DNA of 64,000 nucleotides from Rhodothermales bacterium (GCA_951812585.1 OX638318.1:88819-152818); one strand, 5' to 3'. Positions 5,407 to 61,532 are shown, numbered from the stretch's first letter. Translations and numbers: made by a program. The notes: generated from the letters alone by a model not told the origin.

Positions 5407-5430
5407 ACGAACGCGTAACAGTTGTTGCGA

Positions 5431-33904: not shown

Positions 33905-33947
33905 AAAAAGCAAGACGCCCCGGCACCGATTACGGCACCGGGGCGTC
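33905..33947 (-). terminator. Rho-independent terminator of giant gene copy 1
   Basis: A 10-bp GC stem (gacgccccgg/ccggggcgtc) is followed on the minus strand by TTGCTTTTT, about 30 nt after the stop. Confidence 0.7.
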
Positions 33948-33977
33948 TCCCCTATACTCGCTTTGCGAGACGAACCA

Positions 33978-36900
33978 CTACTTGATCAGAACCATCCGAC
34001 CAGTCTCAATGTGCTTGCCGGAGGCACCCGTAGCGACTACTCGGTAGAAGTAGTTGCCCGAAGCCAGGCTTGTTGCATTGAGCTCGACCGTACGGCTGTG
34101 TCCAGCCTCCAGCTCCTGTGCTGGCAGCGTCATCACATTCCGCCCAAGCATGTCAAACACCGTGATGCTCACCTGTGCCGTCTCAGGCAGATCAAATTCA
34201 ATCCGCGTAGACGGGTTGAACGGATTCGGATAGTTGCCCAAGAGCGTAAACTCTGTCGGCAACTCCTCGGTCGCCGCAGCCGTGATGACCTGCGGGAAGA
34301 ACGTGCTACCGTCCATCCCCACGCCCATCATTGTGAGGCCCTCAGCAGCAGATTTGCCAACGCCAGACATGTTAAGCACCAGCGCCTTGTCCGCGTAGCC
34401 ATCCAACTCGAAACGGAAGACCTCGATCTGCGTGGCACCATCAGAGGTTAACACCTCGATGTTGTAGCCGCCCGGATCCAGCGACTTGTACTCGCCCACA
34501 TCGTCAAACGCAAAGTTGTTGATGAACAAGTCGTTGGTCACGCGCGTGTTGTCCACCGGATCCAGCGTGCGGATGTCAATCTCTCCCAATGCGCTCGCAC
34601 CGTGCACCACGTAAAAGTCCACCATGTTGCTGACGCTAGACGCCGTGCGCACATCCTCCCGGATGACCAGACTCACCACGCCGGCCGCCGCGTTACCATG
34701 CGCAATCACATGGTAGTGCTTGTTCCGGTCGAAGCGAACTGGCAGACTCAGTAGCGGCGCGGAGTTGTCCGGCGCAGCAGCAGCGACGATGTCCAGCGTG
34801 TGATTGCCTGCAGCAACGACCCCAAAGGCAAGCGCCGACTGGAACATGAAGTCGTCCGCGACCTTGTTGTCGTCGAGGTAAACATCCACCGTAGCTCCGG
34901 CTACGTTGTGAACGAACTGCACACGCGCCGTGCCTCCAAGGATCGGATCCGCACTGATCGGATTCTGCAGCATGTTCGAAGCAACACCTAGAATGCTGCA
35001 CATACCCAGTTCCAACCCCTCCTGGGTCAGGTTTGGAACGCCGTTGATGAAATCGTTCCCCCGGTTCGAGTCGTCATCCGTCGGGTCGTCGCTAACATCA
35101 TACACGCCAGCCAGACGTGGATTCGTTCCATCGCAGTCCCACTGAACAATACGAAGGCCAGTGATGTCAAAAACGTTCGGCAAATCGTCAGCAACAAGGC
35201 GTACGTTCGGGTCGTGTGCCGGCACAGCATCCAACTCCACCTTCCAGAACATGTCCGCCGCATTATCCAACAACAGATCCGTGCTGTTGCCATTGGCATC
35301 TACATGCCCCACTTCAAGGTTTATCCATTCCATCGAATCCGCCATTGCATCGTGCAGATAGCTCACCGATGCCGTGCCCGTGTTGCCCAGATCGTCAGGG
35401 AACTGCATGATCAGCGGGCGGAAGGAGTCTGGACCATCGCCCTTCGGACTGCCAACAGGGAAGATGTAGCCTGACGTTACTACGCCCCCGGTGGCATCGC
35501 CCTCCTCAATCGCGCGGCTCAGCGTCCCACTGAAGTAGCTGTTACGCGAACCCAACTGGATGACCGCATTGCCACTGCCCGCCGTGATGCGCCCCTCCAG
35601 GGAACTCTCGGGCGACGATTGCGTGATCATCCACCTGTACATTGGATCACCGCCGATGACGCCGTTCTTCAGCATAAGCCTGCCTTCTATGTTCTGACTG
35701 ACATCGCTCATCAGATTCAGCATGCCCGTATCACCGCCTGGATCAGAGGCTACCTCCACATTGCAGAACTGCGACATCGGGCCGCCCATCGATACGTTCG
35801 ACATGCCATTCGTGACAAACCGAACCGTGCCGTTCATGCCCAGCTCATTGGCCGGCATGCTCGCTTCGTCATTCCAGTCACTCGCAGCATCGAAAGCATA
35901 ATCCCCGTACACCGTCAATCCGATCGGTACTGTGTAGCCGTTAATTTCGGTCGATCCGGCGCAATCTCCGGCACTAAACTCGTAGGTAATCATGCTGTCG
36001 GTAGCAACGTGCATTCCGCCCACATGAAAATCGCCCATCGCCATATGAGATCCACCACCCAATGCCACCAGCGAATTGCTTGGCGTCGTCATCGAACCCT
36101 GCATGTAGTCACCAACCACCGACAAGACGTCCCCTGATACGTCCACTTGGCCATCTCCATCCAGCATCATGTCCCCGCCAATCATCAGCGTAACCTGCGG
36201 ATGGCCTCCGCCGCCTCTTCTTCTGCTGTAGTCGATCTCAGACCCGTTGCCAACGGATACGTCCCCACCAATCATCACGTAGTCCACACCCGGGCCAATC
36301 GCTAAGCTGTTGCTCGGCTTCTCGTCGCTGTTTTCTTCCAGCTCGTCGCTGTTTTCTTCCAGCGTAAGACTCGAAAACATCACCTTATCGGCGTTGTTCG
36401 GCGCAATTGGAGCGCTAGTAGTAGTACGAGTACCGCCGGCCAGCACAGTCAAGTGTCCATTGGAAAGAATCATTCCGGGAGGCCACATCCACTCAAGGGC
36501 TTCTTCGTCCGTTCCTGCATCGAGCGCGACCGAGCCTGCAAAGTGGATCATCCCCGCCGTAGCAGTCTTGGCAGCATTCGCTTTAGACGCCTCGTACTCT
36601 TTACGGGCCTCCGCAAACAGCACACGGTGCTCAGGCGTGTCTTCGTAGCGCATCTTGTCCATCGCATCCGCGAGGTCAAAGAACTCGCGGAAGGCCTCGC
36701 CTTTATCTGCGCAGGACACATCGCCCTCGGAGTCACACAGCACAGCGCCGGATGCAACGTCAATCGTGCCGCCGCGGGCTACAAGATCATTGCCCGCAAG
36801 GTCCACCGCGTTACCCTCGGTAACGTTCAGATTCCTGACAGCCGTATATCCTTCGCGCAGCGACAGGGTGACACTCATGCTGGCGGCGCAACTGTTGACA

Positions 36901-39467
36901 TTAACCGTTGTCGGGGTCCGAGCCGCGTCACTTGTGGCAGCCGCAACGGAGGGATACGTCGGAAGAAGATGCTCCGTCGAGGGGTCCATCGTACCCCTAA
37001 ACGTCAGGCTTCCGGTAGTCGCTTCGAATCCACCCTTCGCATCCACCATAGCGTCGCCTACAATCACGCTGCTTGGTGCGGTAAATGGAAAATCGCTTGT
37101 CACAACCAAGGTGCCCCGCTGCAGATTAAGCCTACCCGTGACATTGATACGGCTAGTCAACTCCACCTCGGTAGCCTTGGTGGCCAGGTAGATGTCAAGG
37201 GTTGACAGCGTGATGCCATTATACACTTCATGCCCCGTATCGAAGGAGCCCAAGCTGCCCGTGTACATTACCCTGCTTGGAGTGCGATACGCCCTGGACC
37301 CACTGTCCGTGGTGTATTCCATGTACGCGTTGATCCCCGACCCCCGGTTGATATCGCCCACAGTTCCTGGTGAGCGGTCGATGAGGAGATAGCCCTCATC
37401 TAGATTGAGCATACCGTTGGTGACGAGCTCGCCGCCCATGATGCTGACACCGTCCACAGACACCTCACTGCCCCCAAATATTAGCTCGTTCCTCGTATTC
37501 TTTTTGACTTCCAGCACCAGATTATCCAATGCCAGTGGCATGGGATTGGCGATGGTTTGCGACGTGGAGCCGCTGAATACGATTGCAGCGCCCGAGATGC
37601 CTGGTGCCCCGCTCGAGCAAACATTGGAATAGTCAGGCGAGACCGTACCGGTCGAACGCACCACCTGCTCTGTTGCATCCGTGAGGTCCAGCATACCCCC
37701 TTGCAACTCAAGTGTGCCATTGACCATGGCATGCACTATGGCCACCCCATAGACACCGCCCTGCACAGTCGTCGTCCCGGTCTTGATCGTCCGCCCGTTC
37801 TCGAGCGTCTTCTCGCTCTCGAAGTACGCGCCTCCGTAGCACTGGGGACTCTCTTCTATCTTGTACGTTCCTCCATCGTCCTCGTATCCATCCCCATCAA
37901 CAACCAACTTGTTGGCCATCATCGGCTTCGAGGCATTATTGAGCTCCACGGAGCCTCCTATCGCACCGCCGTTGAAATACACGCCCGTTGTGAGGCCGCG
38001 ACTCGGCAGAATATGCCCGGGAGTGATCGTGCTGTCGCCGGATACTGCATCCACTGCCACTAAGGCTGGATCCACTGTAGGGAGCCGGTTTCCAGAAAAC
38101 CACTTGTCCTCCATTCCGTAGCACTCCACAACAGGATCCGGCAGACTCCTGGTTGTTGTCGCATTTCCGGTTGACGGATCCGTGTAAACAGCAGTTGCAT
38201 CAACCGTGCCAATACCCGTAAGAACAGCGCCTGGCGCGGGGGCTCCCTGACCTTCAATAAATACGTCCCCGGAAATTGTCGTGCGGTCGAATTTCGTCTG
38301 CGCCATACCGCCGCTTCTGAAACTGCCTGAGACGTTGCTGGAGCTCACCCACAGTACGCCGGCCATATTCGTGGACTGGGCACCCGTGCCAAAGTTGGGA
38401 CTGATGCGCACGCCCGCTTGTGTGTCTTTCATCACATCCAAGGCGATCACTCCGTCCCCATTGATCCTGTATGCATGGGAATACTCATTCTCATTCTGCC
38501 ACCCCGAGTACATTGGATATACGTAGACGTAGTCAGCACCATCTTCTTCTGTCTTTATTTCCGTCAGCATCTCCGCCTCCACGCTGATATACAGAGTGCT
38601 GATTCCGTCCGACGTGACCATACCCGAAACGTTGGCTGACGGAAAACCGTCGGGGCCGCCGTAATCGAACATCTCGGCGTAGGCGCTGTCAGCTTCTCCC
38701 ATGGGCCGGGGCGCGTTGAGGTAGAGACCTTTGTCTCCGCTCAGCTCCAGCGTACCCATGACGTCAAGCTCGCCCCAAACCATGATGCCGTTGTCTGCCG
38801 TCCTAGCGGTATTGATAAACCCACCTGTGCATGTGCCCGTAACTTCGACCGTTTTACCTGAGGGGATCTCCAAGCGTTCAAAGTTTGGGCAGGTGCCGTC
38901 GCCGCCGGAGCCGTCGCTTACATCCATCGTCGTGTTCTGATCAATGACGATGTTGCCGCCAAGCGCCGTACGTGTCATATACTCGTTAAACACGCCATAA
39001 ACAGCCTGATCGGTTTCTGTGCCCGCTGGCGCGGTATCACCAAATGCGATCGTTCCAGACCTCAGGTAGAGCGTAGAGCGCTCATATTCCCGATAGAACG
39101 TCAACGAACCAGCGGTGAAGGTCAGGTTGCCCTGTATCGTCAAATCACCCTCGACCATGTGGTACTTGCTATTAGACGAGGTCTTATAAAGCAGCAGCGT
39201 TGTTTCGTCGTTTACAGTGAGGTGTTCCTGAACGAATACGCTGGAGCTTGTACCGCGGATGCGCACGGCTACGGTATCCTCATCCGCCATGCCTTGAGTT
39301 ATCGTCAAGCACGGCGCATCAAACGTGCAGTCCGCGGCAGTACCGTCCCCGTCGGCCGGATCAACGTAAGCAATGGTTTCTACTTGCCCAAACGCTGTCC
39401 CAGAAAACATCCCGCCAAGCAGCATCAGTGCCGCCACGGCAAGACCGAGAGTTGTAAAGTTCTTCAT
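33978..39467 (-). CDS. Giant T9SS-sorted surface protein, paralogue 1 (1,829 aa)
   Basis: ATG preceded by GGAGGGGG. Signal peptide LAVAALMLLGGMFSGTAFGQ. I recognise no domain in the first ~1,400 aa. Two DUF4397-like modules (ARVQFVHNVAGATVDVYLDD..., VDFYVVHGASALGEIDIR...) precede the T9SS tail (NYPNPFNPSTRIEFDL...GNYFYRV...MVLIK). Confidence 0.85.
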   Translation of the reverse strand: MKNFTTLGLAVAALMLLGGMFSGTAFGQVETIAYVDPADGDGTAADCTFDAPCLTITQGMADEDTVAVRIRGTSSSVFVQEHLTVNDETTLLLYKTSSNSKYHMVEGDLTIQGNLTFTAGSLTFYREYERSTLYLRSGTIAFGDTAPAGTETDQAVYGVFNEYMTRTALGGNIVIDQNTTMDVSDGSGGDGTCPNFERLEIPSGKTVEVTGTCTGGFINTARTADNGIMVWGELDVMGTLELSGDKGLYLNAPRPMGEADSAYAEMFDYGGPDGFPSANVSGMVTSDGISTLYISVEAEMLTEIKTEEDGADYVYVYPMYSGWQNENEYSHAYRINGDGVIALDVMKDTQAGVRISPNFGTGAQSTNMAGVLWVSSSNVSGSFRSGGMAQTKFDRTTISGDVFIEGQGAPAPGAVLTGIGTVDATAVYTDPSTGNATTTRSLPDPVVECYGMEDKWFSGNRLPTVDPALVAVDAVSGDSTITPGHILPSRGLTTGVYFNGGAIGGSVELNNASKPMMANKLVVDGDGYEDDGGTYKIEESPQCYGGAYFESEKTLENGRTIKTGTTTVQGGVYGVAIVHAMVNGTLELQGGMLDLTDATEQVVRSTGTVSPDYSNVCSSGAPGISGAAIVFSGSTSQTIANPMPLALDNLVLEVKKNTRNELIFGGSEVSVDGVSIMGGELVTNGMLNLDEGYLLIDRSPGTVGDINRGSGINAYMEYTTDSGSRAYRTPSRVMYTGSLGSFDTGHEVYNGITLSTLDIYLATKATEVELTSRINVTGRLNLQRGTLVVTSDFPFTAPSSVIVGDAMVDAKGGFEATTGSLTFRGTMDPSTEHLLPTYPSVAAATSDAARTPTTVNVNSCAASMSVTLSLREGYTAVRNLNVTEGNAVDLAGNDLVARGGTIDVASGAVLCDSEGDVSCADKGEAFREFFDLADAMDKMRYEDTPEHRVLFAEARKEYEASKANAAKTATAGMIHFAGSVALDAGTDEEALEWMWPPGMILSNGHLTVLAGGTRTTTSAPIAPNNADKVMFSSLTLEENSDELEENSDEKPSNSLAIGPGVDYVMIGGDVSVGNGSEIDYSRRRGGGGHPQVTLMIGGDMMLDGDGQVDVSGDVLSVVGDYMQGSMTTPSNSLVALGGGSHMAMGDFHVGGMHVATDSMITYEFSAGDCAGSTEINGYTVPIGLTVYGDYAFDAASDWNDEASMPANELGMNGTVRFVTNGMSNVSMGGPMSQFCNVEVASDPGGDTGMLNLMSDVSQNIEGRLMLKNGVIGGDPMYRWMITQSSPESSLEGRITAGSGNAVIQLGSRNSYFSGTLSRAIEEGDATGGVVTSGYIFPVGSPKGDGPDSFRPLIMQFPDDLGNTGTASVSYLHDAMADSMEWINLEVGHVDANGNSTDLLLDNAADMFWKVELDAVPAHDPNVRLVADDLPNVFDITGLRIVQWDCDGTNPRLAGVYDVSDDPTDDDSNRGNDFINGVPNLTQEGLELGMCSILGVASNMLQNPISADPILGGTARVQFVHNVAGATVDVYLDDNKVADDFMFQSALAFGVVAAGNHTLDIVAAAAPDNSAPLLSLPVRFDRNKHYHVIAHGNAAAGVVSLVIREDVRTASSVSNMVDFYVVHGASALGEIDIRTLDPVDNTRVTNDLFINNFAFDDVGEYKSLDPGGYNIEVLTSDGATQIEVFRFELDGYADKALVLNMSGVGKSAAEGLTMMGVGMDGSTFFPQVITAAATEELPTEFTLLGNYPNPFNPSTRIEFDLPETAQVSITVFDMLGRNVMTLPAQELEAGHSRTVELNATSLASGNYFYRVVATGASGKHIETGRMVLIK
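36321..36362 (-). repeat. In-frame 21-bp tandem duplication encoding LEENSDE x2
   Basis: ctcgtcgctgttttcttccag occurs twice. The same duplication is at 44511-44552 and 51723-51764 in copies 2 and 3. It lies at the upstream edge of the second hypervariable patch. Confidence 0.9.
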
Positions 39468-40245
39468 GTGTTCAGCCCCCTCCGGGGCGGTTGGTTAACA
39501 CAAACCAGGGCTGGCACCTCCAGCACACCGGCATTCAGGCGGTAGCAGCCCTGGCATTCGGGTCCTACCGCTACGTGTCTACTACACAGCAGTTCGCATG
39601 CATGCGTAACGTGCGCACGAAAAAAAAACCAGCACCCGAATCCTGCAATTCGGCTACGATTCCGTCACGCTTCGTAGCATCAACCCCGCCAAAACCGTTG
39701 GCGCACCAGCTGCAGGCAAGCCTTCGGCCCGGTCACAATGCTGACGCACTACGCGTAGCGCTACTGCAACAGCTAAATATAGGAATCCGCAACAACAATA
39801 CGCCACAGCGCGGATCATCGCACAAGGTATCAACGCACTGGCAATTCCGTTTCACAAGAAATCAACAATCAACAGTGATTAAGCCGCACGCTGCGCGCGC
39901 CGACGAGCACCTGAACGCTCCGTGTGCTGGGAACATTGGCCATCAGCGCGCAAACAGGGCCACTGCCGCGGGCCTATTGACTCTGCTGCTACTTTTCCGC
40001 ACGCTGCTTGCTGTGATGCGCGAACGTTGAAGCTTGTGCCGAAGAGGTTCCGCGTAGCACACAGGGAATCGCCATTCCCCTTGCGCAGCATTTGTGCCTT
40101 GCACAGATCCAGATAGCGCCACGCAGGCAAACGCGCAAAAAGGTGCGCCTGTGTGTGCGCTACCTTTCCTTCGTGAACCGCCTCAGCGGTGTGTGCCAAC
40201 AAAAATGAGACAAATTCGCCTCGGATTTAGTGTAGCGGATGGAAC

Positions 40246-41370
40246 TCATGTGGGCAGTAACTGGTCGCGTGTGACTACGAAGTTGCGGGACTGGCGGCCA
40301 TTGCTCTTGGCTACGAGCTTCACCGCAGCCTGGGGGTCGTCTGGCGGGTTGATCCACACCTTCCGCGGTGGCATGGGTACCTTGGGCATCCCCCGAATGA
40401 ATCGCTCCGGTTCTCGCGCATAGGCTTCCTGCATGACGCGCTGTCGCGCCTTCCATACCTCGCGCGTCTTGCCGTAGTGGATCGTCGAGGGATGCATCAG
40501 CGCAATCCCCGTGTGGTAGAATTCGTTGTTGTACCAATGGAAGAAGAGCCGCGCCCAGCTCCGGGCGTCCTCCAGGGAGCCGAAGCGCACCTCGTAAGTC
40601 CGGTGGTACTTCGCCGTGCGGAAGTGCGCCTCCGAATAGGGATGGTCGTTCGAGCGATACGGACGGCTGTAGGAGCCTTCCACTCCCAGCTCTGCCAACA
40701 GCTGCACATACGTCTTGCTTGTCATCACCGGGCCGCGATCCGAATGGAGGACCAGCTGGTCTCTTCGGACGTTTTGACGCGCGCATGTGGCCAGGACGAG
40801 ATCCTTGGCCAGCGCGGCAGACTCAAACGAGGCAAGGGTCCATCCCACCACGTAGCGGCTGAAGACATCCCGTAGCACGTAGCGCTTGAAGTGCAGGCCC
40901 TTAACCGGGCCCCGAAGCGTGGTGATGTCCCACGTCCAAAGCTCGTTCGGAGCTTGGGCCAACCACTCCGGCTTCGTGTACGGAGGATGTACGCGCTGAT
41001 TCCTGCGCTCGCGTATCGCCCTGTTTTCACTAAGGATACGATACATGGTGCGCCAGTGGCACAGGTAGGTGCCTTCATCCAGGAGCGTGGCCCAGATCTG
41101 GCGTGGCGGCAGGTCCACAAAACGCCTCGCGTTCAATATCGCCCGAATCTCCGCCCGGCGAGCTTCCGACAACCGTCGGCTGCTCTGGCGACGCCGCTTC
41201 GGCTGCTGCTGCGCCGCACGTTGACTTCTGTAATAGGAGGCGCGAGAGATCCCCACGTGGCGGCAGGCCGCCACCGTACCCAGAATCGGACGCAATGCCT
41301 TGACCCTCTCCCTCATCGCTACCCGGCCTCGCTCTCGCTGCTGATGCCAAAGAGCATGCAGACTTTTTTT
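40246..41370 (-). CDS. IS3 transposase OrfB (DDE integrase core; expressed by -1 frameshift from orfA)
   Basis: The slippery run of 8 A on the coding strand is at 41364-41371 (A AAA AAA G). OrfB contains LWTWDITTL..., HSDRGPVMTS and YSEAHFRTAKY..., a DD(35)E-type core. Confidence 0.8.
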   Translation of the reverse strand, partial: KKSLHALWHQQRERGRVAMRERVKALRPILGTVAACRHVGISRASYYRSQRAAQQQPKRRRQSSRRLSEARRAEIRAILNARRFVDLPPRQIWATLLDEGTYLCHWRTMYRILSENRAIRERRNQRVHPPYTKPEWLAQAPNELWTWDITTLRGPVKGLHFKRYVLRDVFSRYVVGWTLASFESAALAKDLVLATCARQNVRRDQLVLHSDRGPVMTSKTYVQLLAELGVEGSYSRPYRSNDHPYSEAHFRTAKYHRTYEVRFGSLEDARSWARLFFHWYNNEFYHTGIALMHPSTIHYGKTREVWKARQRVMQEAYAREPERFIRGMPKVPMPPRKVWINPPDDPQAAVKLVAKSNGRQSRNFVVTRDQLLPT

Positions 41371-41720
41371 TGAACCTCTATGATGGCCTCGGCCTTCTGA
41401 AGCTGCTGCCGGGACTGACCAAGCGCCTTGCGCAGCCGCCGAATCTCCTCGTCCTTGGCCAACAGTTCCTTCCCAGCCTGGGTCGAACCATAAAGCGCTC
41501 CATATTCGCGCTGCTTGCGCCACTGGGCCAGATGAGACGAGTAAAGGCCTTCCCGACGCAAAAGCGCACCGACCTCTCCAGGCTTGCTGCAGAGCTCGGC
41601 CTCGTCCAGAATGCGCATCTTGTAACTGGCCGTGAACCTGCGGCGCTTGGCCTTGGGAACCACTTCAGTCGGAGGGACCTCTGCCGTACCGGTCGTGTTG
41701 GAAGGGTAATCGGATTCCAT
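41319..41720 (-). CDS. IS3 transposase OrfA (HTH)
   Basis: MESDYPS...KRRRFTASYKMRILDEAE...LLRREGLYSSHLAQWRKQ is typical of IS3 OrfA. It ends just after the QKKV slippery site. Confidence 0.8.
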   Translation of the reverse strand: MESDYPSNTTGTAEVPPTEVVPKAKRRRFTASYKMRILDEAELCSKPGEVGALLRREGLYSSHLAQWRKQREYGALYGSTQAGKELLAKDEEIRRLRKALGQSRQQLQKAEAIIEVQKKVCMLFGISSESEAG

Positions 41721-42097
41721 GATTGAATAGGGGAAAATGATGGATTGGTTAAGCAAAATCGCCAGACCAGCCCTGCCGCTTGAACCCCAACGCGGCTACA
41801 CTATTAATGTATTGAACTGTCTCACTTCTTATTGGCACAGAGGGCAGTGACGACTAAGCGACGTCAAAGCGATATAAGGCAAGTGTAGAATTTATTGCCC
41901 CATCTTTGCTGCGTAAATAAAGCCGGCGCTCAGCGCCGCACATGCCGGGCGCATGGACACGCGCCGCCATGCACCAAGTTGGCCGCAGCTGCAGCGTGCT
42001 CGAATCACTGGCGGCAGAAGCAGAGCTTGCGTGCGGTGGGCGTGGCGTGCGCTTTGAATCCGCAGCCACCAGTCGGATGATATCGACCACTGCGCCT

Positions 42098-42140
42098 AAA
42101 AAGCAAGACGCCCCGGCACCGATTACGGCACCGGGGCGTC
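42098..42140 (-). terminator. Rho-independent terminator of giant gene copy 2
   Basis: Same hairpin and T tract as 33905-33947. Confidence 0.7.
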
Positions 42141-42170
42141 TCCCCTATACTCGCTTTGCGAGACGAATCA

Positions 42171-45100: not shown

Positions 45101-47675
45101 TCGGGGTCCGAGCCGCGTCACTTGTGGCAGCCGCAACGGAGGGATACGTCGGAAGAAGATGCTCCGTCGAGGGGTCCATCGTACCCCTAAACGTCAGGCT
45201 TCCGGTAGTCGCTTCGAATCCACCCTTCGCATCCACCATAGCGTCGCCTACAATCACGCTGCTTGGTGCGGTAAATGGAAAATCGCTTGTCACAACCAAG
45301 GTGCCCCGCTGCAGATTAAGCCTATCCGTGACATTGATACGGCTAGTCAACTCCACCTCGGTAGCCTTGGTGGCCAGGTAGATGTCAAGGGTTGACAGCG
45401 TGATGCCATTATACACTTCATGCCCCGTATCGAAGGAGCCCAAGCTGCCCGTGTACATTACCCTGCTTGGAGTGCGATACGCCTTGGACCCACTGTCCGT
45501 GGTGTATTCCATGTACGCGTTGATCCCCGACCCCCGGTTGATATCGCCCACAGTTCCTGGTGAGCGGTCGATGAGGAGATAGCCCTCATCTAGATTGAGC
45601 ATACCGTTGGTGACGAGCTCGCCGCCCATGATGCTGACACCGTCCACAGACACCTCACTGCCCCCAAATATTAGCTCGTTCCTCGTATTCTTTTTGACTT
45701 CCAGCACCAGATTATCCAATGCCAGTGGCATGGGATTGGCGATGGTTTGCGACGTGGAGCCGCTGAATACGATTGCAGCGCCCGAGATGCCTGGTGCCCC
45801 GCTCGAGCAAACATTGGAACCGTCAGGCGAGACCGTACCGGTCGAACGCACCACCTGCTCTGTTGCAGCCGTGAGGTCCAGCATACCCCCTTGCAACTCA
45901 AGTGTGCCATTGACCATGGCATGCACTATGGCCACCCCATAGACACCGCCCTGCACAGTCGTCGTCCCGGTCTTGATCGTCCGCCCGTTCTCGAGCGTCT
46001 TCTCGCTCTCGAAGTACGCGCCTCCGTAGCACTGGGGACTCTCTTCTATCTTGTACGTTCCTCCATCGTCCTCGTATCCATCCCCATCAACAACCAACTT
46101 GTTGGCCATCATCGGCTTCGAGGCATTATTGAGCTCCACGGAGCCTCCTATCGCACCGCCGTTGAAATACACGCCCGTTGTGAGGCCGCGACTCGGCAGA
46201 ATATGCCCGGGAGTGATCGTGCTGTCGCCGGATACTGCATCCACTGCCACTAAGGCTGGATCCACTGTAGGGAGCCGGTTTCCAGAAAACCACTTGTCCT
46301 CCATTCCGTAGCACTCCACAACAGGATCCGGCAGACTCCTGGTTGTTGTCGCATTTCCGGTTGACGGATCCGTGTAAACAGCAGTTGCATCAACCGTGCC
46401 AATACCCGTAAGAACAGCGCCTGGCGCGGGGGCTCCCTGACCTTCAATAAATACGTCCCCGGAAATTGTCGTGCGGTCGAATTTCGTCTGCGCCATACCG
46501 CCGCTTCTGAAACTGCCTGAGACGTTGCTGGAGCTCACCCACAGTACGCCGGCCATATTCGTGGACTGGGCACCCGTGCCAAAGTTGGGACTGATGCGCA
46601 CGCCCGCTTGTGTGTCTTTCATCACATCCAAGGCGATCACTCCGTCCCCATTGATCCTGTATGCATGGGAATACTCATTCTCATTCTGCCACCCCGAGTA
46701 CATTGGATATACGTAGACGTAGTCAGCACCATCTTCTTCTGTCTTTATTTCCGTCAGCATCTCCGCCTCCACGCTGATATACAGAGAGCTGATTCCGTCC
46801 GACGTGACCATACCCGAAACGTTGGCTGACGGAAACCCGTTGGGGCCGCCGTAATCGAACATCTTGGCGTAGGCGCTGTCAGCTTCTCCCATGGGCCGGG
46901 GCGCGTTGAGGTAGAGACCTTTGTCTCCGCTCAGCTCCAGCGTACCCATGACGTCAAGCTCGCCCCAAACCATGATGCCGTTGTCTGCCGTCACAGGGGT
47001 GCCATCGCCCGGATTGATAAACCCACCTGTGCATGTGCCCGTAACTTCGACCGTTACACCTGAGGGGATCTCCAAGCGTTCAAAGTTTGGGCAGGTGCCG
47101 TCGCCGCCGGAGCCGTCGCTTACATCCATCGTCGTGTTCTGATCAATGACGATGTTGCCGCCAAGCGCCGTACGTGTCATGTACTCGTTAAACACGCCAT
47201 AATCAGTCTGATCGGAAAGGGTACCTATATCTGTGCCCGCTGGCGCGGTATCACCAAATGCGATCGTTCCAGACCTCAGGTAGAGCGTAGAGCGCTCATA
47301 TTCCCGATAGAACGTCAACGAACCACCGGTGAAGGTCAGGTTGCCCTGTATCGTCAAGTTACCCTCGACCATGTGGTACTCACTATTAGACGAGGTCTTA
47401 TAAAGCAGCAGCGTTATGTCGTCGCTTACAGAGAGGTGTTCCTGAACGAATACGCTGGAGCTTGTACCGCGGATGCGCACGGCTACGGTATCCGCACCCG
47501 AAACCGCCATGCCTTGAGTTATCGTCAAGCACGGCGCATCAAACGTACATGCCGTGGCAGTGCCATCCCCGTCGGCCGGATCAACGTAAGCTTGCCCAAA
47601 CGCTGTCCCAGAAAACATCCCGCCAAGCAGAACCAGCGCCGCCACGGCAAAACCGTGAGTTGTAACGTTCCTCAT
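42171..47675 (-). CDS. Giant T9SS-sorted surface protein, paralogue 2 (1,834 aa)
   Basis: Same architecture as copy 1 and an intact ORF. It differs mainly in two patches. Confidence 0.85.
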   Translation of the reverse strand: MRNVTTHGFAVAALVLLGGMFSGTAFGQAYVDPADGDGTATACTFDAPCLTITQGMAVSGADTVAVRIRGTSSSVFVQEHLSVSDDITLLLYKTSSNSEYHMVEGNLTIQGNLTFTGGSLTFYREYERSTLYLRSGTIAFGDTAPAGTDIGTLSDQTDYGVFNEYMTRTALGGNIVIDQNTTMDVSDGSGGDGTCPNFERLEIPSGVTVEVTGTCTGGFINPGDGTPVTADNGIMVWGELDVMGTLELSGDKGLYLNAPRPMGEADSAYAKMFDYGGPNGFPSANVSGMVTSDGISSLYISVEAEMLTEIKTEEDGADYVYVYPMYSGWQNENEYSHAYRINGDGVIALDVMKDTQAGVRISPNFGTGAQSTNMAGVLWVSSSNVSGSFRSGGMAQTKFDRTTISGDVFIEGQGAPAPGAVLTGIGTVDATAVYTDPSTGNATTTRSLPDPVVECYGMEDKWFSGNRLPTVDPALVAVDAVSGDSTITPGHILPSRGLTTGVYFNGGAIGGSVELNNASKPMMANKLVVDGDGYEDDGGTYKIEESPQCYGGAYFESEKTLENGRTIKTGTTTVQGGVYGVAIVHAMVNGTLELQGGMLDLTAATEQVVRSTGTVSPDGSNVCSSGAPGISGAAIVFSGSTSQTIANPMPLALDNLVLEVKKNTRNELIFGGSEVSVDGVSIMGGELVTNGMLNLDEGYLLIDRSPGTVGDINRGSGINAYMEYTTDSGSKAYRTPSRVMYTGSLGSFDTGHEVYNGITLSTLDIYLATKATEVELTSRINVTDRLNLQRGTLVVTSDFPFTAPSSVIVGDAMVDAKGGFEATTGSLTFRGTMDPSTEHLLPTYPSVAAATSDAARTPTTVNVNSCAASMSVTLSLREGYTAVRNLNVTEGNAVDLAGNDLVARGGTIDVAPGAVLCDSEGDVSCAGKGEAFREFFDLADAMDKMRYEDTPEHRVLFAEARKEYEASKANAAKTATAGMIHFAGSVALDAGTDEEALEWMWPPGMILSNGHLIVQAGGTLSTTTAPIAPNNADKVMFSSLTLEENSDELEENSDEESSNVLTISSGVDYVMIGGDVSVGNGSSILVRSGRGGGHPQTTLMIGGDMMLDGDGRVNLFGDVLSVAGDYMQGSMTTPGNSLVDLVSGSHMAMGDFHVGGMHVATDSMITYEFSAEDCAGSIELDGYTVPIGLTVYGDYAFDAASDWNDEASMPANELGMNGTVRFVTNGMSNVSMGGPMSQFCNVEVASDPGGDTGMLNLMSDVSQNIEGRLMLKNGVIGGDPMYRWMITQSSPESSLEGRITAGSGNAVIQLGSRNSYFSGTLSRAIEEGDATGGVVTSGYIFPVGSPKGDGPDSFRPLIMQFPDDLGNTGMASVSYLHDAIADSMEWINLEVGHVDANGNSTDLLLDNAADMFWKVELDAVPAHDPNVRLVADDLPNVFDITGLRIVQWDCDGTNPRLAGVYDVSADPTDDDSYRGNDFINGVPNLTQEGLELGMCSILGVASNMLQNPISADPILGGTARVQFIHNVAGATVDVYLDDNKVADDFMFQSALAFGVVAAGNHTLDIVAAAAPDNSAPLLSLPVRFDRNKHYHVIAHGNAAAGVVSLVIREDVRTASSVSNMVDFYVVHGASALGEIDIRTLDPVDNTRVTNDLFINNFAFDDVGEYKSLDPGGYNIEVLTSDGATQIEVFRFELDGYADKALVLNMSGVGKSAAEGLTMMGVGMDGSTFFPQVITAAATEELPTEFTLLGNYPNPFNPSTRIEFDLPETAQVSITVFDMLGRNVMTLPAQELEAGHSRTVELNATSLASGNYFYRVVATGASGKHIETGRMVLIK

Positions 47676-48486
47676 GTGTTCAGCCCCCTCCGGGGCGGTT
47701 GGTTAACACAAACCAGGGCTGGCACCTCCAGCATACCGGCATTCAGGCGGTAGCAGCCCTGGCATTCGGGTCCTACCACTACGTGCCTGCTACACAGCAG
47801 TTCGCATGCATGCGTAACGTGCGCACGAAAAAAAACAGCATCCGAATCCTGCAATTCGGCTACGATTCCGTCACGCTTCGTAGCATCAACCCCGCCAAAA
47901 CCGTTGGCGCACCAGCTGTAGGCAAGCCTTCGGCCCGGTCACAATGCTGACGCACTACGCGTGACGCTACTGCAACGGCCAATATAGGAACCTGCAACAA
48001 TAACACGCCACAGCGCGGATCATCGCACAGGTATCAACGCACTGGCAATTCCGTTTCACAAGAAATCAACAGTGGTTAAGCCGCACGCTGCGCGCGCCGA
48101 CGAGCACCTGAACGCTCCGTGTGCTGGGAACATTGGCCATCAGCGCGCAAACAGGGCCACTGCCGCGGGCTTATTGACTCTGCTGCTACTTTTCCGCACG
48201 CTGCTTGCTGTGATGCGCGAACGTTGAAGCTTCTGCCGCAGAGGTTCCGCGTAGCACACAGGCATCGCCATTTCCCTTGCGCAGCATTTGCGCCTCCATG
48301 CCACGCTTAAGCGGTATGGAAGGCTGATGCCCGAGCGCACTCCCCTCGGCGCCAGAATGGCTGCGCGCTTCCTGGCTACAATGCTTTCGCCGCCGCGCCC
48401 TCAGGCGTTCGAAACAGCTAAGGACCGTTGGTCGCTCCGGGAAGCTGTCTCATCGTGACGAGACGCTAAACGAATTGCCATGCTTA

Positions 48487-49062
48487 TACCTTGCATCCGC
48501 TCTTCAGTACACGGAAGAAGTCTTCCATGTGCCCTCGCTTGAGGTAATAATCCAGCATCCGAACCGCGGCTCCTGTCCGGTATGCAGTTCCATACGAGTC
48601 AGCAGCACCCACGCAAGCGGCTGCTGGCCCGCAGGCGGATTCGTCTCGCGCACATGAACGCCGTGCATGCGTATCGGCGCGGCCTGCCTTTCCGGGTCTG
48701 GAAGCAGCATGGACGGCAGCGAACCTCCGCGCGCGCTTGGCGGCGCACCGCCTTCGGACATGCCGTCACGCGTGAGAGTTCTATCTGCACTGTGGGTGGT
48801 TACGGGAACACGCTCCAGCGTCACAAACAGCTTCCGACCAGCGACCATGGTGCGCACGCACGAGCACATCCACCCGCTCCTTGGAGCGCTACAAGTCCAA
48901 GCATGCAAACCGGTCAGCCTCCCGATCCATGACGCACACCACAAGGCACTCGGCAAAAAGCACCGCTTGTGCCTTGCACAGATCCAGATAGCGCACACGC
49001 AGGCAAACGCGCAAAAAGGTGCGCCTGTGTGTGCGCTACCTTTCCTTCGTGAACCGCCTCAG
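48487..49062 (-). pseudogene. Relic of an IS4-family (Tn5-like) transposase at the unit 2/unit 3 junction
   Basis: In shifting frames it reads VVCVMDREADRF (DREAD motif), VHVRETNPPAGQQPLAWVLLT and LDYYLKRGHMEDFFRVLKSGCK (degenerate YxxRxxxE...K block). Stops are in frame, and it is truncated exactly at 48487, where the array leader homology ends. An 87-bp piece of it survives in spacer 1 (40099-40186). Confidence 0.6.
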
Positions 49063-49312
49063 TGACGACTAAGCGACGTCAAAGCGATATAAGGCAAGTG
49101 TAGAATTTATTGCCCCATCTTTGCTGCGTAAATAAAGCCGGCGCTCAGCGCCGCACATGCCGGGCGCATGGACACGCGCCGCCATGCACCAAGTTGGCCG
49201 CAGCTGCAGCGTGCTCGAATCACTGGCGGCAGAAGCAGAGCTTGCGTGCGGTGGGCGTGGCGTGCGCTTTGAATCCGCAGCCACCAGTCGGATGATATCG
49301 ACCACTGCGCCT

Positions 49313-49355
49313 AAAAAGCAAGACGCCCCGGCACCGATTACGGCACCGGGGCGTC
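49313..49355 (-). terminator. Rho-independent terminator of giant gene copy 3
   Basis: Same hairpin and T tract as 33905-33947. Confidence 0.7.
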
Positions 49356-49385
49356 TCCCCTATACTCGCTTTGCGAGACGAATCA

Positions 49386-52300
49386 CTACTTGATCAGAAC
49401 CATCCGACCAGTCTCAATGTGTTTGCCGGAGGCACCCGTAGCGACTACTCGGTAGAAGTAGTTGCCCGAAGCCAGGCTTGTTGCATTGAGCTCGACCGTA
49501 CGGCTGTGTCCAGCCTCCAGCTCCTGTGCTGGCAGCGTCATCACATTCCGTCCAAGCATGTCAAACACCGTGATGCTCACCTGTGCCGTCTCAGGCAGAT
49601 CAAATTCAATCCGCGTAGACGGGTTGAACGGATTCGGATAGTTGCCCAAGAGCGTAAACTCTGTCGGCAACTCCTCGGTCGCCGCAGCCGTGATGACCTG
49701 CGGGAAGAACGTGCTACCGTCCATCCCCACGCCCATCATTGTGAGGCCCTCAGCAGCAGATTTGCCAACGCCAGACATGTTAAGCACCAGCGCCTTGTCC
49801 GCGTAGCCATCCAACTCGAAACGGAAGACCTCGATCTGCGTGGCACCATCAGAGGTTAACACCTCGATGTTGTAGCCGCCCGGATCCAGCGACTTGTACT
49901 CGCCCACATCGTCAAACGCAAAGTTGTTGATGAACAAGTCGTTGGTCACGCGCGTGTTGTCCACCGGATCCAGCGTGCGGATGTCAATCTCTCCCAATGC
50001 GCTCGCACCGTGCACCACGTAAAAGTCCACCATGTTGCTGACGCTGGACGCCGTGCGCACATCCTCCCGGATGACCAGACTCACCACGCCGGCCGCCGCG
50101 TTACCATGCGCAATCACATGGTAGTGCTTGTTCCGGTCGAAGCGAACTGGCAGACTCAGTAGCGGCGCGGAGTTGTCCGGCGCAGCAGCAGCGACGATGT
50201 CCAGCGTGTGATTGCCTGCAGCAACGACCCCAAAGGCAAGCGCCGACTGAAACATGAAGTCGTCCGCGACCTTGTTGTCGTCGAGGTAAACATCCACCGT
50301 AGCTCCGGCTACGTTGTGAATGAACTGCACACGCGCCGTGCCTCCAAGGATCGGATCCGCACTGATCGGATTCTGCAGCATGTTCGAAGCAACACCTAGA
50401 ATGCTGCACATACCCAGTTCCAACCCCTCCTGGGTCAGGTTTGGAACGCCGTTGATGAAATCGTTCCCCCGGTATGAGTCGTCATCCGTCGGGTCGGCGC
50501 TAACATCATACACGCCAGCCAGACGTGGATTCGTTCCATCGCAGTCCCACTGAACAATACGAAGGCCCGTGATGTCAAAAACGTTCGGCAAATCGTCAGC
50601 AACAAGGCGTACGTTCGGGTCGTGTGCCGGCACAGCATCCAACTCCACCTTCCAGAACATGTCCGCCGCATTATCCAACAACAGATCCGTGCTGTTGCCA
50701 TTGGCATCTACATGCCCCACTTCAAGGTTTATCCATTCCATCGAATCCGCTATTGCATCGTGCAGATAGCTCACCGATGCCATGCCCGTGTTGCCCAGAT
50801 CGTCAGGGAACTGCATGATCAGCGGGCGGAAGGAGTCTGGACCATCGCCCTTCGGACTGCCAACAGGGAAGATGTAGCCTGACGTTACTACGCCCCCGGT
50901 GGCATCGCCCTCCTCAATCGCGCGGCTCAGCGTCCCACTGAAGTAGCTGTTACGCGAACCCAGCTGGATGACCGCACTGTCACTGCCCGCCGTGATGCGC
51001 CCCTCCAGGGAATTCTCGGGCGACGGTTGCGTGATCATCCACCTGTACATTGGATCACCGCCGATGACGCCGTTCTTCAGCATAAGCCTGCCTTCTATGT
51101 TCTGACTGACATCGCTCATCAGATTCAGCATGCCCGTATCACCACCTGGATCAGAGGCTACCTCCACATTGCAGAACTGCGACATCGGGCCGCCCATCGA
51201 TACGTTCGACATGCCATTCGTGACAAACCGAACCGTGCCGTCCATGCCCAGCTCATTGGCCGGCATGCTCGCCTTGTCATTCCAGTCACTCGCAGCATCG
51301 AAAGCATAATCCCCGTACACCGTCAATCCGATCGGTACTGTGTAGCCGTTAAGTTCGGTCGATCCGGCGCAATCTCCGGCACCAAACTCGTAGGTAATCA
51401 TGCTGTCGGTAGCAACGTGCATTCCGCCCACATGAAAATCGCCCATCGCCATATGAGATCCACCACCCAATGCCACCAGCGAATTGCCTGGCGTCGTCAT
51501 CGAACCCTGCATGTAGTCACCAGCTACCGACAAGACATGACCGGATACGATCACCCTGCCATCTCCATCCAGCATCATGTCCCCGCCAATCATCAGCGTA
51601 GTCTGCGGATGGCCTCCGGCGCGGCTTCTGACCCAGATCGAAGACCCGTTGCCAACGGATACGTCCCCGCCAATCATCACGTAGTCCACACCCAAGCCAG
51701 TCGTTAAGCTGTTGCTCGGCTTCTCGTCGCTGTTTTCTTCCAGCTCGTCGCTGTTTTCTTCCAGCGTAAGACTCGAAAACATCACCTTATCGGCGTTGTT
51801 CGGCGCAATTGGAGCCGTAGTAGTAGAAAGAGTACCGCCGGCCTGCACAATCAAGTGTCCATTGGAAAGAATCATTCCGGGAGGCCACATCCACTCAAGG
51901 GCTTCTTCGTCCGTTCCTGCATCGAGCGCGACCGAGCCTGCAAAGTGGATCATCCCCGCCGTAGCAGTCTTGGCAGCATTCGCTTTAGACGCCTCGTACT
52001 CTTTACGGGCCTCCGCAAACAGCACACGGTGCTCAGGCGTGTCTTCGTAGCGCATCTTGTCCATCGCATCCGCGAGGTCAAAGAACTCGCGGAAGGCCTC
52101 GCCTTTATCTGCGCAGGACACATCGCCCTCGGAGTCACACAGCACAGCGCCGGATGCAACGTCAATCGTGCCGCCGCGGGCTACAAGATCATTGCCCGCA
52201 AGGTCCACCGCGTTACCCTCGGTAACGTTCAGATTCCTGACAGCCGTATATCCTTCGCGCAGCGACAGGGTGACACTCATGCTGGCGGCGCAACTGTTGA

Positions 52301-54875
52301 CATTAACCGTTGTCGGGGTCCGAGCCGCGTCACTTGTGGCAGCCGCAACGGAGGGATACGTCGGAAGAAGATGCTCCGTCGAGGGGTCCATCGTACCCCT
52401 AAACGTCAGGCTTCCGGTAGTCGCTTCGAATCCACCCTTCGCATCCACCATAGCGTCGCCTACAATCACGCTGCTTGGTGCGGTAAATGGAAAATCGCTT
52501 GTCACAACCAAGGTGCCCCGCTGCAGATTAAGCCTATCCGTGACATTGATACGGCTAGTCAACTCCACCTCGGTAGCCTTGGTGGCCAGGTAGATGTCAA
52601 GGGTTGACAGCGTGATGCCATTATACACTTCATGCCCCGTATCGAAGGAGCCCAAGCTGCCCGTGTACATTACCCTGCTTGGAGTGCGATACGCCTTGGA
52701 CCCACTGTCCGTGGTGTATTCCATGTACGCGTTGATCCCCGACCCCCGGTTGATATCGCCCACAGTTCCTGGTGAGCGGTCGATGAGGAGATAGCCCTCA
52801 TCTAGATTGAGCATACCGTTGGTGACGAGCTCGCCGCCCATGATGCTGACACCGTCCACAGACACCTCACTGCCCCCAAATATTAGCTCGTTCCTCGTAT
52901 TCTTTTTGACTTCCAGCACCAGATTATCCAATGCCAGTGGCATGGGATTGGCGATGGTTTGCGACGTGGAGCCGCTGAATACGATTGCAGCGCCCGAGAT
53001 GCCTGGTGCCCCGCTCGAGCAAACATTGGAATAGTCAGGCGAGACCGTACCGGTCGAACGCACCACCTGCTCTGTTGCAGCCGTGAGGTCCAGCATACCC
53101 CCTTGCAACTCAAGTGTGCCATTGACCATGGCATGCACTATGGCCACCCCATAGACACCGCCCTGCACAGTCGTCGTCCCGGTCTTGATCGTCTGCCCGT
53201 TCTCGAGCGTCTTCTCGCTCTCGAAGTACGCGCCTCCGTAGCACTGGGGACTCTCTTCTATCTTGTACGTTCCTCCATCGTCCTCGTATCCATCCCCATC
53301 AACAACCAACTTGTTGGCCATCATCGGCTTCGAGGCATTATTGAGCTCCACGGAGCCTCCTATCGCACCGCCGTTGAAATACACGCCCGTTGTGAGGCCG
53401 CGACTCGGCAGAATATGCCCGGGAGTGATCGTGCTGTCGCCGGATACTGCATCCACTGCCACTAAGGCTGGATCCACTGTAGGGAGCCGGTTTCCAGAAA
53501 ACCACTTGTCCTCCATTCCGTAGCACTCCACAACAGGATCCGGCAGACTCCTGGTTGTTGTCGCATTTCCGGTTGACGGATCCGTGTAAACAGCAGTTGC
53601 ATCAACCGTGCCAATACCCGTAAGAACAGCGCCTGGCGCGGGGGCTCCCTGACCTTCAATAAATACGTCCCCGGAAATTGTCGTGCGGTCGAATTTCGTC
53701 TGCGCCATACCGCCGCTTCTGAAACTGCCTGAGACGTTGCTGGAGCTCACCCACAGTACGCCGGCCATATTCGTGGACAGGGCACCCGTGCCAAAGTTGG
53801 GACTGATGCGCACGCCCGCTTGTGTGTCTTTCACCACATCCAAGGCGATCACTCCGTCCCCATTGATCCTGTATGCATGGGAATACTCATTCTGCCAACC
53901 CGAGTACATTGGATATACGTAGACGTAGTCATCACCATCTTCTTCCGTCTTTATTTCCGTCAGCATCTCCGCCTCCACGCTGATATACAGAGTGCTGATT
54001 CCGTCCGACGTGATCATACCCGAAACGTTGGCTGACGGAAAACCGTTGGGGCCGCCGTAATCGAACATCTTGGCGTAGGCGCTGTCAACTCCTCCCATGG
54101 GCCGGGGCCCGTTGAGGTGGAGACCTTTGTCTCCGCTCAGCTCCAGCGTACCCATGACGTCAAGCTCGCCCCAAACTATGATGCTGTTGTCTGTCGTCGT
54201 ATCGGTATCGATAAAGTTATCTCCTGTGCATGTACCCGTAACTTCGACCGTTACACCTGAGGGGATCACCAAGCGTTCAAAGTTTGGGCAGGTGCCGTCG
54301 CCGCCGGAGCCGTCGCTTACATCCATCGTCGTGTTCTGATCAATGACGATGTTGCCGCCAAGCGCCGTACGTGTCATGTACTCGTTAAACACGCCATAAT
54401 CAGCCTGAGCGGGACCACCAGCACCTACCGGTGGCACGTTAATACCAAATGTGATCGTTCCAGACCTCAGGTAGAGCGTAGAGCGCTCATATTCCCGATA
54501 GAACGTCAACTCACCACCGATGAAGGTCAGGTTGCCTTGTATCGTCAAGTCACCCTCGACCATGTGGTACTTGCTATTAGACGAGGTCTTATAAAGCAGC
54601 AGCGTTATGCCTTCCCTTACAGTGAGGTGTTCCTGAACGAATACGCTGGAGCTTGTACCGCGGATGCGCACGGCTACTGTATCCGCACCCGAAACCTCCA
54701 TGCCTTGAGTTATCGTCAAGCACGGCGCATCAAACGTGCAGTCCGCGGCAGTACCGTCCCCGTCGGCCGGATCAACGTAAACAATGCTTTCTTGCCCAAA
54801 CGCTGTCCCAGAAAACATCCCGCCAAGCAGAACCAGCGCCGCCACGGCAAGACCGTGAGTTGTAACGTTCCTCAT
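49386..54875 (-). CDS. Giant T9SS-sorted surface protein, paralogue 3 (1,829 aa)
   Basis: Same architecture and an intact ORF. The last ~520 codons translate identically to copy 2. Confidence 0.85.
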   Translation of the reverse strand: MRNVTTHGLAVAALVLLGGMFSGTAFGQESIVYVDPADGDGTAADCTFDAPCLTITQGMEVSGADTVAVRIRGTSSSVFVQEHLTVREGITLLLYKTSSNSKYHMVEGDLTIQGNLTFIGGELTFYREYERSTLYLRSGTITFGINVPPVGAGGPAQADYGVFNEYMTRTALGGNIVIDQNTTMDVSDGSGGDGTCPNFERLVIPSGVTVEVTGTCTGDNFIDTDTTTDNSIIVWGELDVMGTLELSGDKGLHLNGPRPMGGVDSAYAKMFDYGGPNGFPSANVSGMITSDGISTLYISVEAEMLTEIKTEEDGDDYVYVYPMYSGWQNEYSHAYRINGDGVIALDVVKDTQAGVRISPNFGTGALSTNMAGVLWVSSSNVSGSFRSGGMAQTKFDRTTISGDVFIEGQGAPAPGAVLTGIGTVDATAVYTDPSTGNATTTRSLPDPVVECYGMEDKWFSGNRLPTVDPALVAVDAVSGDSTITPGHILPSRGLTTGVYFNGGAIGGSVELNNASKPMMANKLVVDGDGYEDDGGTYKIEESPQCYGGAYFESEKTLENGQTIKTGTTTVQGGVYGVAIVHAMVNGTLELQGGMLDLTAATEQVVRSTGTVSPDYSNVCSSGAPGISGAAIVFSGSTSQTIANPMPLALDNLVLEVKKNTRNELIFGGSEVSVDGVSIMGGELVTNGMLNLDEGYLLIDRSPGTVGDINRGSGINAYMEYTTDSGSKAYRTPSRVMYTGSLGSFDTGHEVYNGITLSTLDIYLATKATEVELTSRINVTDRLNLQRGTLVVTSDFPFTAPSSVIVGDAMVDAKGGFEATTGSLTFRGTMDPSTEHLLPTYPSVAAATSDAARTPTTVNVNSCAASMSVTLSLREGYTAVRNLNVTEGNAVDLAGNDLVARGGTIDVASGAVLCDSEGDVSCADKGEAFREFFDLADAMDKMRYEDTPEHRVLFAEARKEYEASKANAAKTATAGMIHFAGSVALDAGTDEEALEWMWPPGMILSNGHLIVQAGGTLSTTTAPIAPNNADKVMFSSLTLEENSDELEENSDEKPSNSLTTGLGVDYVMIGGDVSVGNGSSIWVRSRAGGHPQTTLMIGGDMMLDGDGRVIVSGHVLSVAGDYMQGSMTTPGNSLVALGGGSHMAMGDFHVGGMHVATDSMITYEFGAGDCAGSTELNGYTVPIGLTVYGDYAFDAASDWNDKASMPANELGMDGTVRFVTNGMSNVSMGGPMSQFCNVEVASDPGGDTGMLNLMSDVSQNIEGRLMLKNGVIGGDPMYRWMITQPSPENSLEGRITAGSDSAVIQLGSRNSYFSGTLSRAIEEGDATGGVVTSGYIFPVGSPKGDGPDSFRPLIMQFPDDLGNTGMASVSYLHDAIADSMEWINLEVGHVDANGNSTDLLLDNAADMFWKVELDAVPAHDPNVRLVADDLPNVFDITGLRIVQWDCDGTNPRLAGVYDVSADPTDDDSYRGNDFINGVPNLTQEGLELGMCSILGVASNMLQNPISADPILGGTARVQFIHNVAGATVDVYLDDNKVADDFMFQSALAFGVVAAGNHTLDIVAAAAPDNSAPLLSLPVRFDRNKHYHVIAHGNAAAGVVSLVIREDVRTASSVSNMVDFYVVHGASALGEIDIRTLDPVDNTRVTNDLFINNFAFDDVGEYKSLDPGGYNIEVLTSDGATQIEVFRFELDGYADKALVLNMSGVGKSAAEGLTMMGVGMDGSTFFPQVITAAATEELPTEFTLLGNYPNPFNPSTRIEFDLPETAQVSITVFDMLGRNVMTLPAQELEAGHSRTVELNATSLASGNYFYRVVATGASGKHIETGRMVLIK

Positions 54876-61487: not shown

Positions 61488-61495
61488 GGTGCCAG

Positions 61496-61524: not shown

Positions 61525-61532
61525 TGCGCAGA

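Follow-up and report, generated by a model that had tools for sequence, protein, structure and literature searches.

The 64,000-nucleotide (nt) stretch of DNA from Rhodothermales bacterium analyzed here (GCA_951812585.1 OX638318.1:88819-152818; the whole stretch is called the window below) carries three tandem copies of one giant gene, and variants are distributed among the copies as a mosaic, so that the closest pair of copies changes from one segment to the next. We consider the best full explanation to be a tandem array whose copies became mosaics by homologous exchange with one another, and place its probability at about 0.78. The array occupies the minus strand as three head-to-tail units of approximately 6.4-6.6 kb each, which are 97.2% identical pairwise by self-BLAST. 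Unit 1 (33721-40099) comprises gene copy 1 with about 630 nt upstream and 257 nt downstream. Unit 2 (41845-48486), which contains gene copy 2, is 97.3% identical to unit 3 (self-BLAST), and unit 3 (49060-55713), defined by self-BLAST and the list of open reading frames (ORFs), contains gene copy 3. Homology common to all three units spans 33721-40099, 41914-48295 and 49129-55523; units 2 and 3 are homologous beyond these limits, 41845-48486 corresponding to 49060-55713. Each of the three genes is an intact minus-strand ORF: copy 1 at 33978-39467 (1829 amino acids (aa), an exact match to protein P0008), copy 2 at 42171-47675 (1834 aa, an exact match to P0011) and copy 3 at 49386-54875 (1829 aa, identical to P0001).

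A first-pass annotation of this region had proposed ongoing gene conversion, on the ground that some variants unite copies 1 and 3 against copy 2 and others unite copies 2 and 3 against copy 1. The peptide motifs it quoted are present in exactly the copies that it named (19/19). Copies 2 and 3 are also identical at the 3' end, as it had reported: the last 529 codons with the stop codon, the terminator and the downstream flank form a minus-strand tract of 1903 nt (41845-43747 = 49060-50962) without a single difference, and the off-frame shadow-ORF stretches 42156-43667 and 49371-50882 are likewise identical. Its further argument, that no single duplication order explains such sharing, does not hold in the form given. 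In a comparison of only three sequences, any site that varies is a singleton, its variant being private to one copy, and all of the site patterns are compatible with a star tree or with any order of duplication; these patterns are uninformative, and only spatial clustering or polarization with an outgroup can show exchange. A third class of variants, in which copies 1 and 2 agree against copy 3, had been overlooked and is about as frequent as the other two. Among 183 substitution sites, copy 1 is the odd one at 71, copy 2 at 49 and copy 3 at 61.

Copies 1 and 2 are identical to each other in two minus-strand tracts. The first, of 567 nt, lies at 35375-35941 (= 43568-44134), and copy 3 (50783-51349) differs from both at 9 sites. 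The second covers 924 alignment columns at 37679-38596 (= 45869-46786), where copy 3 has 6 substitutions and a 6-nt deletion; this tract is not individually significant (p=0.13). A dense patch private to copy 3 at 54413-54452 on the same strand has approximately 14 substitutions in about 35 nt beside in-frame indels (fragment p=0.0001). Most of the upstream variants are found in the non-coding region of copy 2 (47734-48291, minus strand), and copies 1 and 3 agree with each other there (39526-40095 and 54934-55519).

Variants are clustered along the gene beyond chance. Clustering was assessed by permutations in which the odd-copy labels were shuffled and the positions of the variable sites were held fixed, a design that controls for differences in rate along the gene. 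The runs test returned 77 runs against 173.6 +/- 7.6 expected (z=-12.7), and label-blind thinning to one variant per 10, 20, 50 or 100 bp gave z values of -6.0, -4.4, -3.5 and -2.6, respectively. A binned chi-square on 138 collapsed events, with indels and adjacent substitutions merged, yielded p=0.0003-0.004; in its first bins, which are upstream, copy 2 is the odd one for 13 events, copy 1 for 10 and copy 3 for 1. Individual tracts were evaluated by a GENECONV-like permutation. The tract in which copies 2 and 3 are identical, 1837 aligned nt, has p=0.0005 (0.0018 after collapsing within 20 bp), and the 567-nt tract of copies 1 and 2 has p=0.003 (0.019 after collapsing within 5 bp). A patch of 96 columns in which copies 1 and 2 agree against 14 substitutions of copy 3 has p=0.0001.

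Rooted relationships among the copies also depend on the segment. At 90% identity the protein cluster consists of the three window proteins and metagenome fragments, and as outgroup we used a metagenome contig, L002, that is 91-96% identical to the copies and roughly equidistant from the three over most of its own length. Polarized in this way, derived states are common to copies 2 and 3 at 19 sites, to copies 1 and 3 at 11 and to copies 1 and 2 at 7, and they fall in spatial blocks. Copies 1 and 3 share the blocks at columns 1366-1576 and 3433-3479, copies 2 and 3 that at columns 3740-4035, and copies 1 and 3 again a short internal block at columns 4089-4177 with other relationships on both sides. 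Copies 1 and 2 share columns 4263-4683, where 5 of the 6 synapomorphies lie within the 567-nt tract, and copies 2 and 3 share columns 4895-6368. Of the 13 sites that set copy 1 (33721-35554) apart within the 1903-nt tract common to copies 2 and 3, the outgroup agrees with copy 1 at 10. The pairwise homoplasy index (PHI) for the copies plus L002 gives p=0.0002. The four-gamete test fails for 419 of 666 informative site pairs, and the Hudson-Kaplan minimum number of recombination events (Rm) is 11.

Tests of the kind that the first-pass annotation named thus give significant GENECONV-style tracts and four-gamete failures, with marginal results for tracts uniting copies 1 and 3. Together with PHI and the clustering permutations they bear out its central claim of segmental exchange between copies. 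They do not carry the narrower claims that the process is specifically gene conversion, that it is ongoing, or that these three copies alone were involved. Ongoing exchange is not seen directly; it might be inferred from the 1903-nt tract that is free of differences. The central 2 kb or so of the gene (36450-38380 and its equivalents in copies 2 and 3) shows 0-5 differences per 400 columns among the copies, and the same region is 6-11% different from contig L002. Such uniformity among copies combined with divergence from the outgroup is the contrast expected under concerted evolution.

The boundaries between units bear on how the array may have formed. The junction sequence between units 2 and 3 (48967-49128) recurs between units 1 and 2 as 40092-40186 plus 41845-41913, where it is split by an insertion sequence of the IS3 family (40187-41844, minus strand). 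Since both inter-unit junctions have one junction sequence, both descend from one original duplication junction, which indicates that the third copy arose via unequal exchange inside an existing duplication rather than by a separate duplication. At least one unequal exchange thus built the array. The IS3-family element has a transposase ORF at 40246-41523 (425 aa), terminal inverted repeats TGTGTGCCAAC... and a 3-bp target duplication, CAG; its identity is indicated by the rve domain (Pfam) and a match of 163.6 bits to NF033516, for which the cut-off is 160. Its empty, uninterrupted target site is present at 49057-49062, and the insertion is apparently recent. A segment of 671 nt at 48296-48966, between units 2 and 3, is also missing from the junction between units 1 and 2. 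An ORF of 164 aa belonging to this segment (48504-48998) has a weak match to IS4 transposases (E=4e-5, far under the cut-off), and the segment may be what remains of an element that sat at the junction of the original duplication. Independent contigs, assembled from short reads of other samples, stop exactly at the branch points of the array, L001 and L003 at the equivalent of 33721 and L085 at that of 41845/49060, which supports the array structure in natural populations. Two distant homologues, P0013 and P0015, are single-copy genes in ordinary chromosomal settings, so the triplication is specific to this lineage among those examined.

We propose that a 7.2-kb segment with one giant gene, encoding a surface protein secreted by the type IX secretion system (T9SS), would have been duplicated in tandem, and that this duplication would have grown to three copies through unequal homologous recombination. 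Homologous recombination of the RecA type between misaligned copies, 97% identical, would have moved stretches of about 0.1 to 2 kb by non-crossover gene conversion, by further unequal crossovers, or by both. The expected outcome is that the closest pair of copies switches along the gene. The latest event would have made copies 2 and 3 identical over 1.9 kb at the 3' end. Recombination would hold the conserved core and the C-terminal secretion module uniform; short variable patches would stay different and be reassorted among copies, and some of them may have been imported from outside the array or have diverged quickly.

One unequal crossover would be expected to produce the main 3' pattern, since it would join the low-coordinate part of copy 3 to the high-coordinate part of copy 1 in a middle copy. 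Copy 2 might then be a simple hybrid, its 3' portion from copy 3 and its 5' portion from copy 1, without any later conversion. Copy 2 does equal copy 3 at the 3' end through the downstream flank to 41845, and copy 1 in the tracts 43568-44134 and 45869-46786; the common junction sequence is also what expansion by unequal exchange would give, and a single-breakpoint triplet test with copy 2 as the child is significant on the raw sites (p=0.0005). However, copy 2 is odd in the upstream 600 nt or so and in several internal patches, and copies 1 and 3 have derived states in common at 11 sites, among them three internal patches. Moreover, Rm is at least 11, and after events are collapsed the triplet test for copy 2 gives p=0.56 and that for copy 1 as the child still gives p=0.006. 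These observations require several events, and the simple-hybrid model, which appears improbable, was not adopted. For the short internal patches shared between non-adjacent copies, non-crossover conversion explains the pattern more simply than would repeated expansion and contraction of the array, although one genome provides no proof.

Sources outside the array must also be considered, either alleles of other strains or further paralogues, with exchange among the three copies playing only a minor part in the mosaic. Dense private patches without a donor in the window need an outside source or fast local divergence. In columns 1201-1600 copy 2 differs from L002 at only 7/374 positions, copy 1 at 14/362 and copy 3 at 27/362, and the variable regions are highly divergent in the population, with up to 86/353 differences from L002 (columns 3601-4000). 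The genes of a conjugative type IV secretion system (T4SS) adjoin the array as well. Import alone, however, cannot account for the identity of two resident copies over stretches of 1903, 567 and 924 nt, and within the protein cluster the only full-length members are these three, all from the 3.2-Mb source contig. As the main source of the mosaic, outside DNA seems quite improbable to us, less so as a contributor to individual patches.

An artefact of assembly or polishing, whether false homogenization by multi-mapped reads or a mixing of co-existing strain haplotypes, is very improbable: the source is apparently a single 3.2-Mb contig of an uncultured organism and states resembling those of copies 1, 2 and 3 occur as a mosaic within the related metagenome contigs too, but the three ORFs are intact with coding indels in multiples of 3, each tract is homogenized in two copies and not in three, and independent assemblies break at the branch points of the array and carry both alleles at variable sites.

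Several points weigh against exchange among the copies of the array as we read it. One genome shows neither non-reciprocity nor direction, and the mosaics expected from conversion resemble those expected from repeated unequal crossover. Polishing with multi-mapped reads may falsely homogenize repeats, and strain mixing in a metagenome assembly may do likewise. When neighbours with the same label are merged before the runs test, the signal is gone, with z=-0.65 for a distance of 10 bp and positive values from 30 bp upwards. The triplet test with copy 2 as the child also loses its signal once events are merged, and tracts uniting copies 1 and 3, taken alone, are only marginal (p=0.037) and are lost after collapsing. 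A donor for the dense private patches is absent from the other copies and from the whole window in a short-word BLAST search. Finally, L002 and the remaining metagenome contigs were assembled from short reads of a gene present in several copies, and they may be chimeric or may have exchanged with the copies. Regarding the runs test, merging neighbours of the same label is biased against clustering and removes the signal by construction, and it was replaced by the label-blind thinning given above. The relationship of copies 1 and 3 draws mainly on the 11 outgroup-polarized sites. By our own estimate, made without simulation, parallel mutation at such divergence should account for only a few of the conflicting sites among the copies. 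Some recombination is required even if L002 is chimeric or has exchanged with the copies.

Every copy encodes, from the N to the C terminus, a hydrophobic leader, approximately 1500 residues without a Pfam match, a DUF4397 domain (1514-1633) and a T9SS type A sorting domain (1746-1814). The leader is MKNFTTLGLAVAALMLLGGMFSGTAFGQ, a signal peptide as judged by eye rather than by prediction. Residues 1746-1814 match PF18962 with 34.4 bits (cut-off 27) and TIGR04183 with 33.3 bits (cut-off 23), which together with the leader identifies the protein as T9SS cargo. The family is very rare: an exhaustive HMMER search of 1.84 billion representative proteins recovered 15 relatives, the closest with 40% identity, and a scan of species-representative genomes found none. 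A word-indexed protein search returned the source cluster and matches to the T9SS tail only, the family surfacing only in the exhaustive HMMER search. An AlphaFold model of residues 1-1200, built from 12 sequences, has a mean predicted local distance difference test (pLDDT) score of 74.4 and consists nearly entirely of short beta strands. Foldseek found no significant match to it in the PDB (best E=0.026, template modelling (TM) scores 0.1-0.2). The top-ranked entries are mostly beta-helix adhesins and autotransporter passengers; this resemblance of the model is a weak lead, and on fold class only. Hbp, Ag43, EtpA and VacA p55, the beta-solenoid adhesins and autotransporter passengers among these non-significant top matches, have short beta strands in common with the model, but the giant protein has a T9SS C-terminal domain in place of a type V barrel and no sequence homology to them.

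The copies look like separate transcription units, because each is followed by its own identical terminator. The terminator-like hairpin of copy 3 (49321-49356, minus strand) has a 17-bp stem and begins 30 nt past the stop codon, and identical copies are located at 33913-33948 and 42106-42141. A scan for sigma-70 promoters was uninformative, with 5 sites against 3.5 expected.

Coding indels that differ among the copies are all multiples of 3, while those upstream measure 1, 2, 7 and 16 nt; with the intact ORFs, this makes the variants look biological rather than erroneous. Overall, the pairwise ratio of non-synonymous to synonymous change (dN/dS) among the three copies is 1.0-1.2; it falls to 0.26 over the last 500 codons and is 0.9-1.4 for the variable regions, and the conserved core (codon columns 401-1040) has 27 non-synonymous and 3 synonymous differences. 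Variable positions per 10 residues number 1.65 in low-confidence blocks of the model versus 0.64 elsewhere (Spearman rho=-0.23, p=0.013), and the low-confidence blocks, modestly enriched in variable residues, may be loops. Transitions and transversions stand at 114:67. The ancestral bases of the polarized changes are G at 34, A at 25, C at 20 and T at 13, and this lack of an adenine excess argues that the system is not driven by a retroelement; a diversity-generating retroelement was rejected on this ground and since no short template repeat was found in the window. Site-specific inversion, as in a shufflon or an invertible promoter, was rejected too, the only inverted sequences found being the terminator palindromes and weak pairs attributable to chance.

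Gene conversion between loci and concerted evolution are documented for bacterial paralogues, for example the PE_PGRS pairs of Mycobacterium tuberculosis and other repeat loci, and are long-lasting in prokaryotes (PMC1762029, PMC12046097, PMC13061034, PMC6053082). As in those cases, where the pattern is ascribed to homologous recombination between copies, we see long identical tracts, mosaic sharing of variants and relationships that depend on the segment. The features by which such cases are recognized were all found here: copies of high identity in one genome, clustered sharing with significant tracts, and segment-dependent rooted relationships, the outgroup being a short-read metagenome scaffold. 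The present case is unlike the known bacterial paralogues in that it concerns three tandem 5.5-kb genes of an orphan family of T9SS cargo in an uncultured Rhodothermales-like bacterium. It differs as well in that variable patches are left unhomogenized and that non-reciprocity is beyond the reach of one genome. Tandem arrays that are expanded and homogenized by unequal recombination have been described in poxviruses (PMC6115191) and Trypanosoma brucei (PMC1855330). They too have head-to-tail units with one junction, and identical tracts and hybrid copies that result from misaligned recombination. Unlike them, the array described here is on a bacterial chromosome or an integrated element, has three copies, and has one junction marked by an IS3-family insertion and a 671-nt deletion.

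Cassette-based antigenic variation, as at Neisseria pilE/pilS, Borrelia vlsE and Anaplasma msp2, uses one expression site and silent cassettes. Selection on mechanisms of antigenic variation in general has been treated elsewhere (PMC3828179). In common with cassette systems, variable stretches seem to have been transferred segmentally between gene copies for a surface protein, and variation is patchy, with dN/dS of about 1 or higher in the patches. A cassette-type system was nevertheless rejected for this array: all three copies are complete ORFs with a start codon, a signal peptide, about 630 nt of homologous upstream sequence and a terminator. In addition, and unlike cassette systems, no dedicated recombination signal or inverted repeat was found at the array.

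Homologous exchange among the three copies is thus supported; exchange of this kind between duplicated genes is a textbook phenomenon in bacteria and calls for no new mechanism. What is added is an instance, backed by statistics, of tandem paralogues recombining in an uncultured environmental lineage that resembles the Rhodothermales and in a very rare protein family. There is also a lesson of method: with three copies, patterns of sharing alone prove nothing, and clustering tests and an outgroup are needed. More speculatively, the array could act as a standing variation system, in which three full-length, separately transcribed copies in a free-living bacterium keep a uniform core and secretion module and have their variable patches reassorted or imported under diversifying selection, for example by phages or grazers. 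We regard this as unlikely, and any benefit from the variation would be conjectural; were the variable patches under diversifying selection, cassette-like surface variation would extend beyond pathogens.

The conjugative T4SS genes lie directly upstream of copy 3 on the same, minus strand (56036-63802) and run off the end of the window. They include VirD4/TraG, TrbI/VirB10, CagX/VirB9, VirB8, TrbL/VirB6, a T4SS protein and a TraG P-loop ATPase. Their position beside copy 3 suggests that the array may be at the edge of an integrated (integrative) conjugative element, and the array may be cargo of this adjoining element. The array has a G+C content of approximately 57%, compared with about 60% for the sequence to its left and 62-64% for the T4SS genes, and the window contains no tRNA gene. 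A class II aminoacyl-tRNA synthetase encoded in the window shares 65-72% identity with its counterparts in Rhodothermales and Rubricoccaceae metagenome-assembled genomes, which indicates that the host is an uncultured relative of the Rhodothermales without a close species representative.

On the other side of the array, unit 1 is adjoined by a gene at 31037-33094 (plus strand) for a GH16 glycoside hydrolase with CBM6/35 and a T9SS sorting tail, and genes for an AddAB-like helicase-nuclease occupy 24770-30999. A second giant surface-type protein of 1770 aa is encoded at 16979-22291 (minus strand); it contains cadherin, Big_9 and cadherin_4 repeats and is unrelated in sequence to the product of the triplicated gene.

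Another relative of the giant protein, P0014 (1600 aa, 39% identical), is encoded on the 255-kb contig ctg243866_27x_c, of which positions 1-24803 (L088) were inspected. The surroundings of P0014 there comprise about 40 small ORFs in same-strand blocks, with almost no Pfam matches and one weak match to Acb2/Tad1. A PHROGs scan of the neighbours matched 2 of 10 proteins, in both cases to a family without known function, which does not establish a phage origin; the contig might represent a jumbo phage or a giant mobile element. The presence of P0014 on such a contig hints that the family moves between hosts and mobile elements. Three adjoining ORFs on the same strand at 22511-24774 of L088 have no family match and encode 249-251 aa each, and these near-equal lengths, the only property compared, suggest another small tandem array of paralogues.

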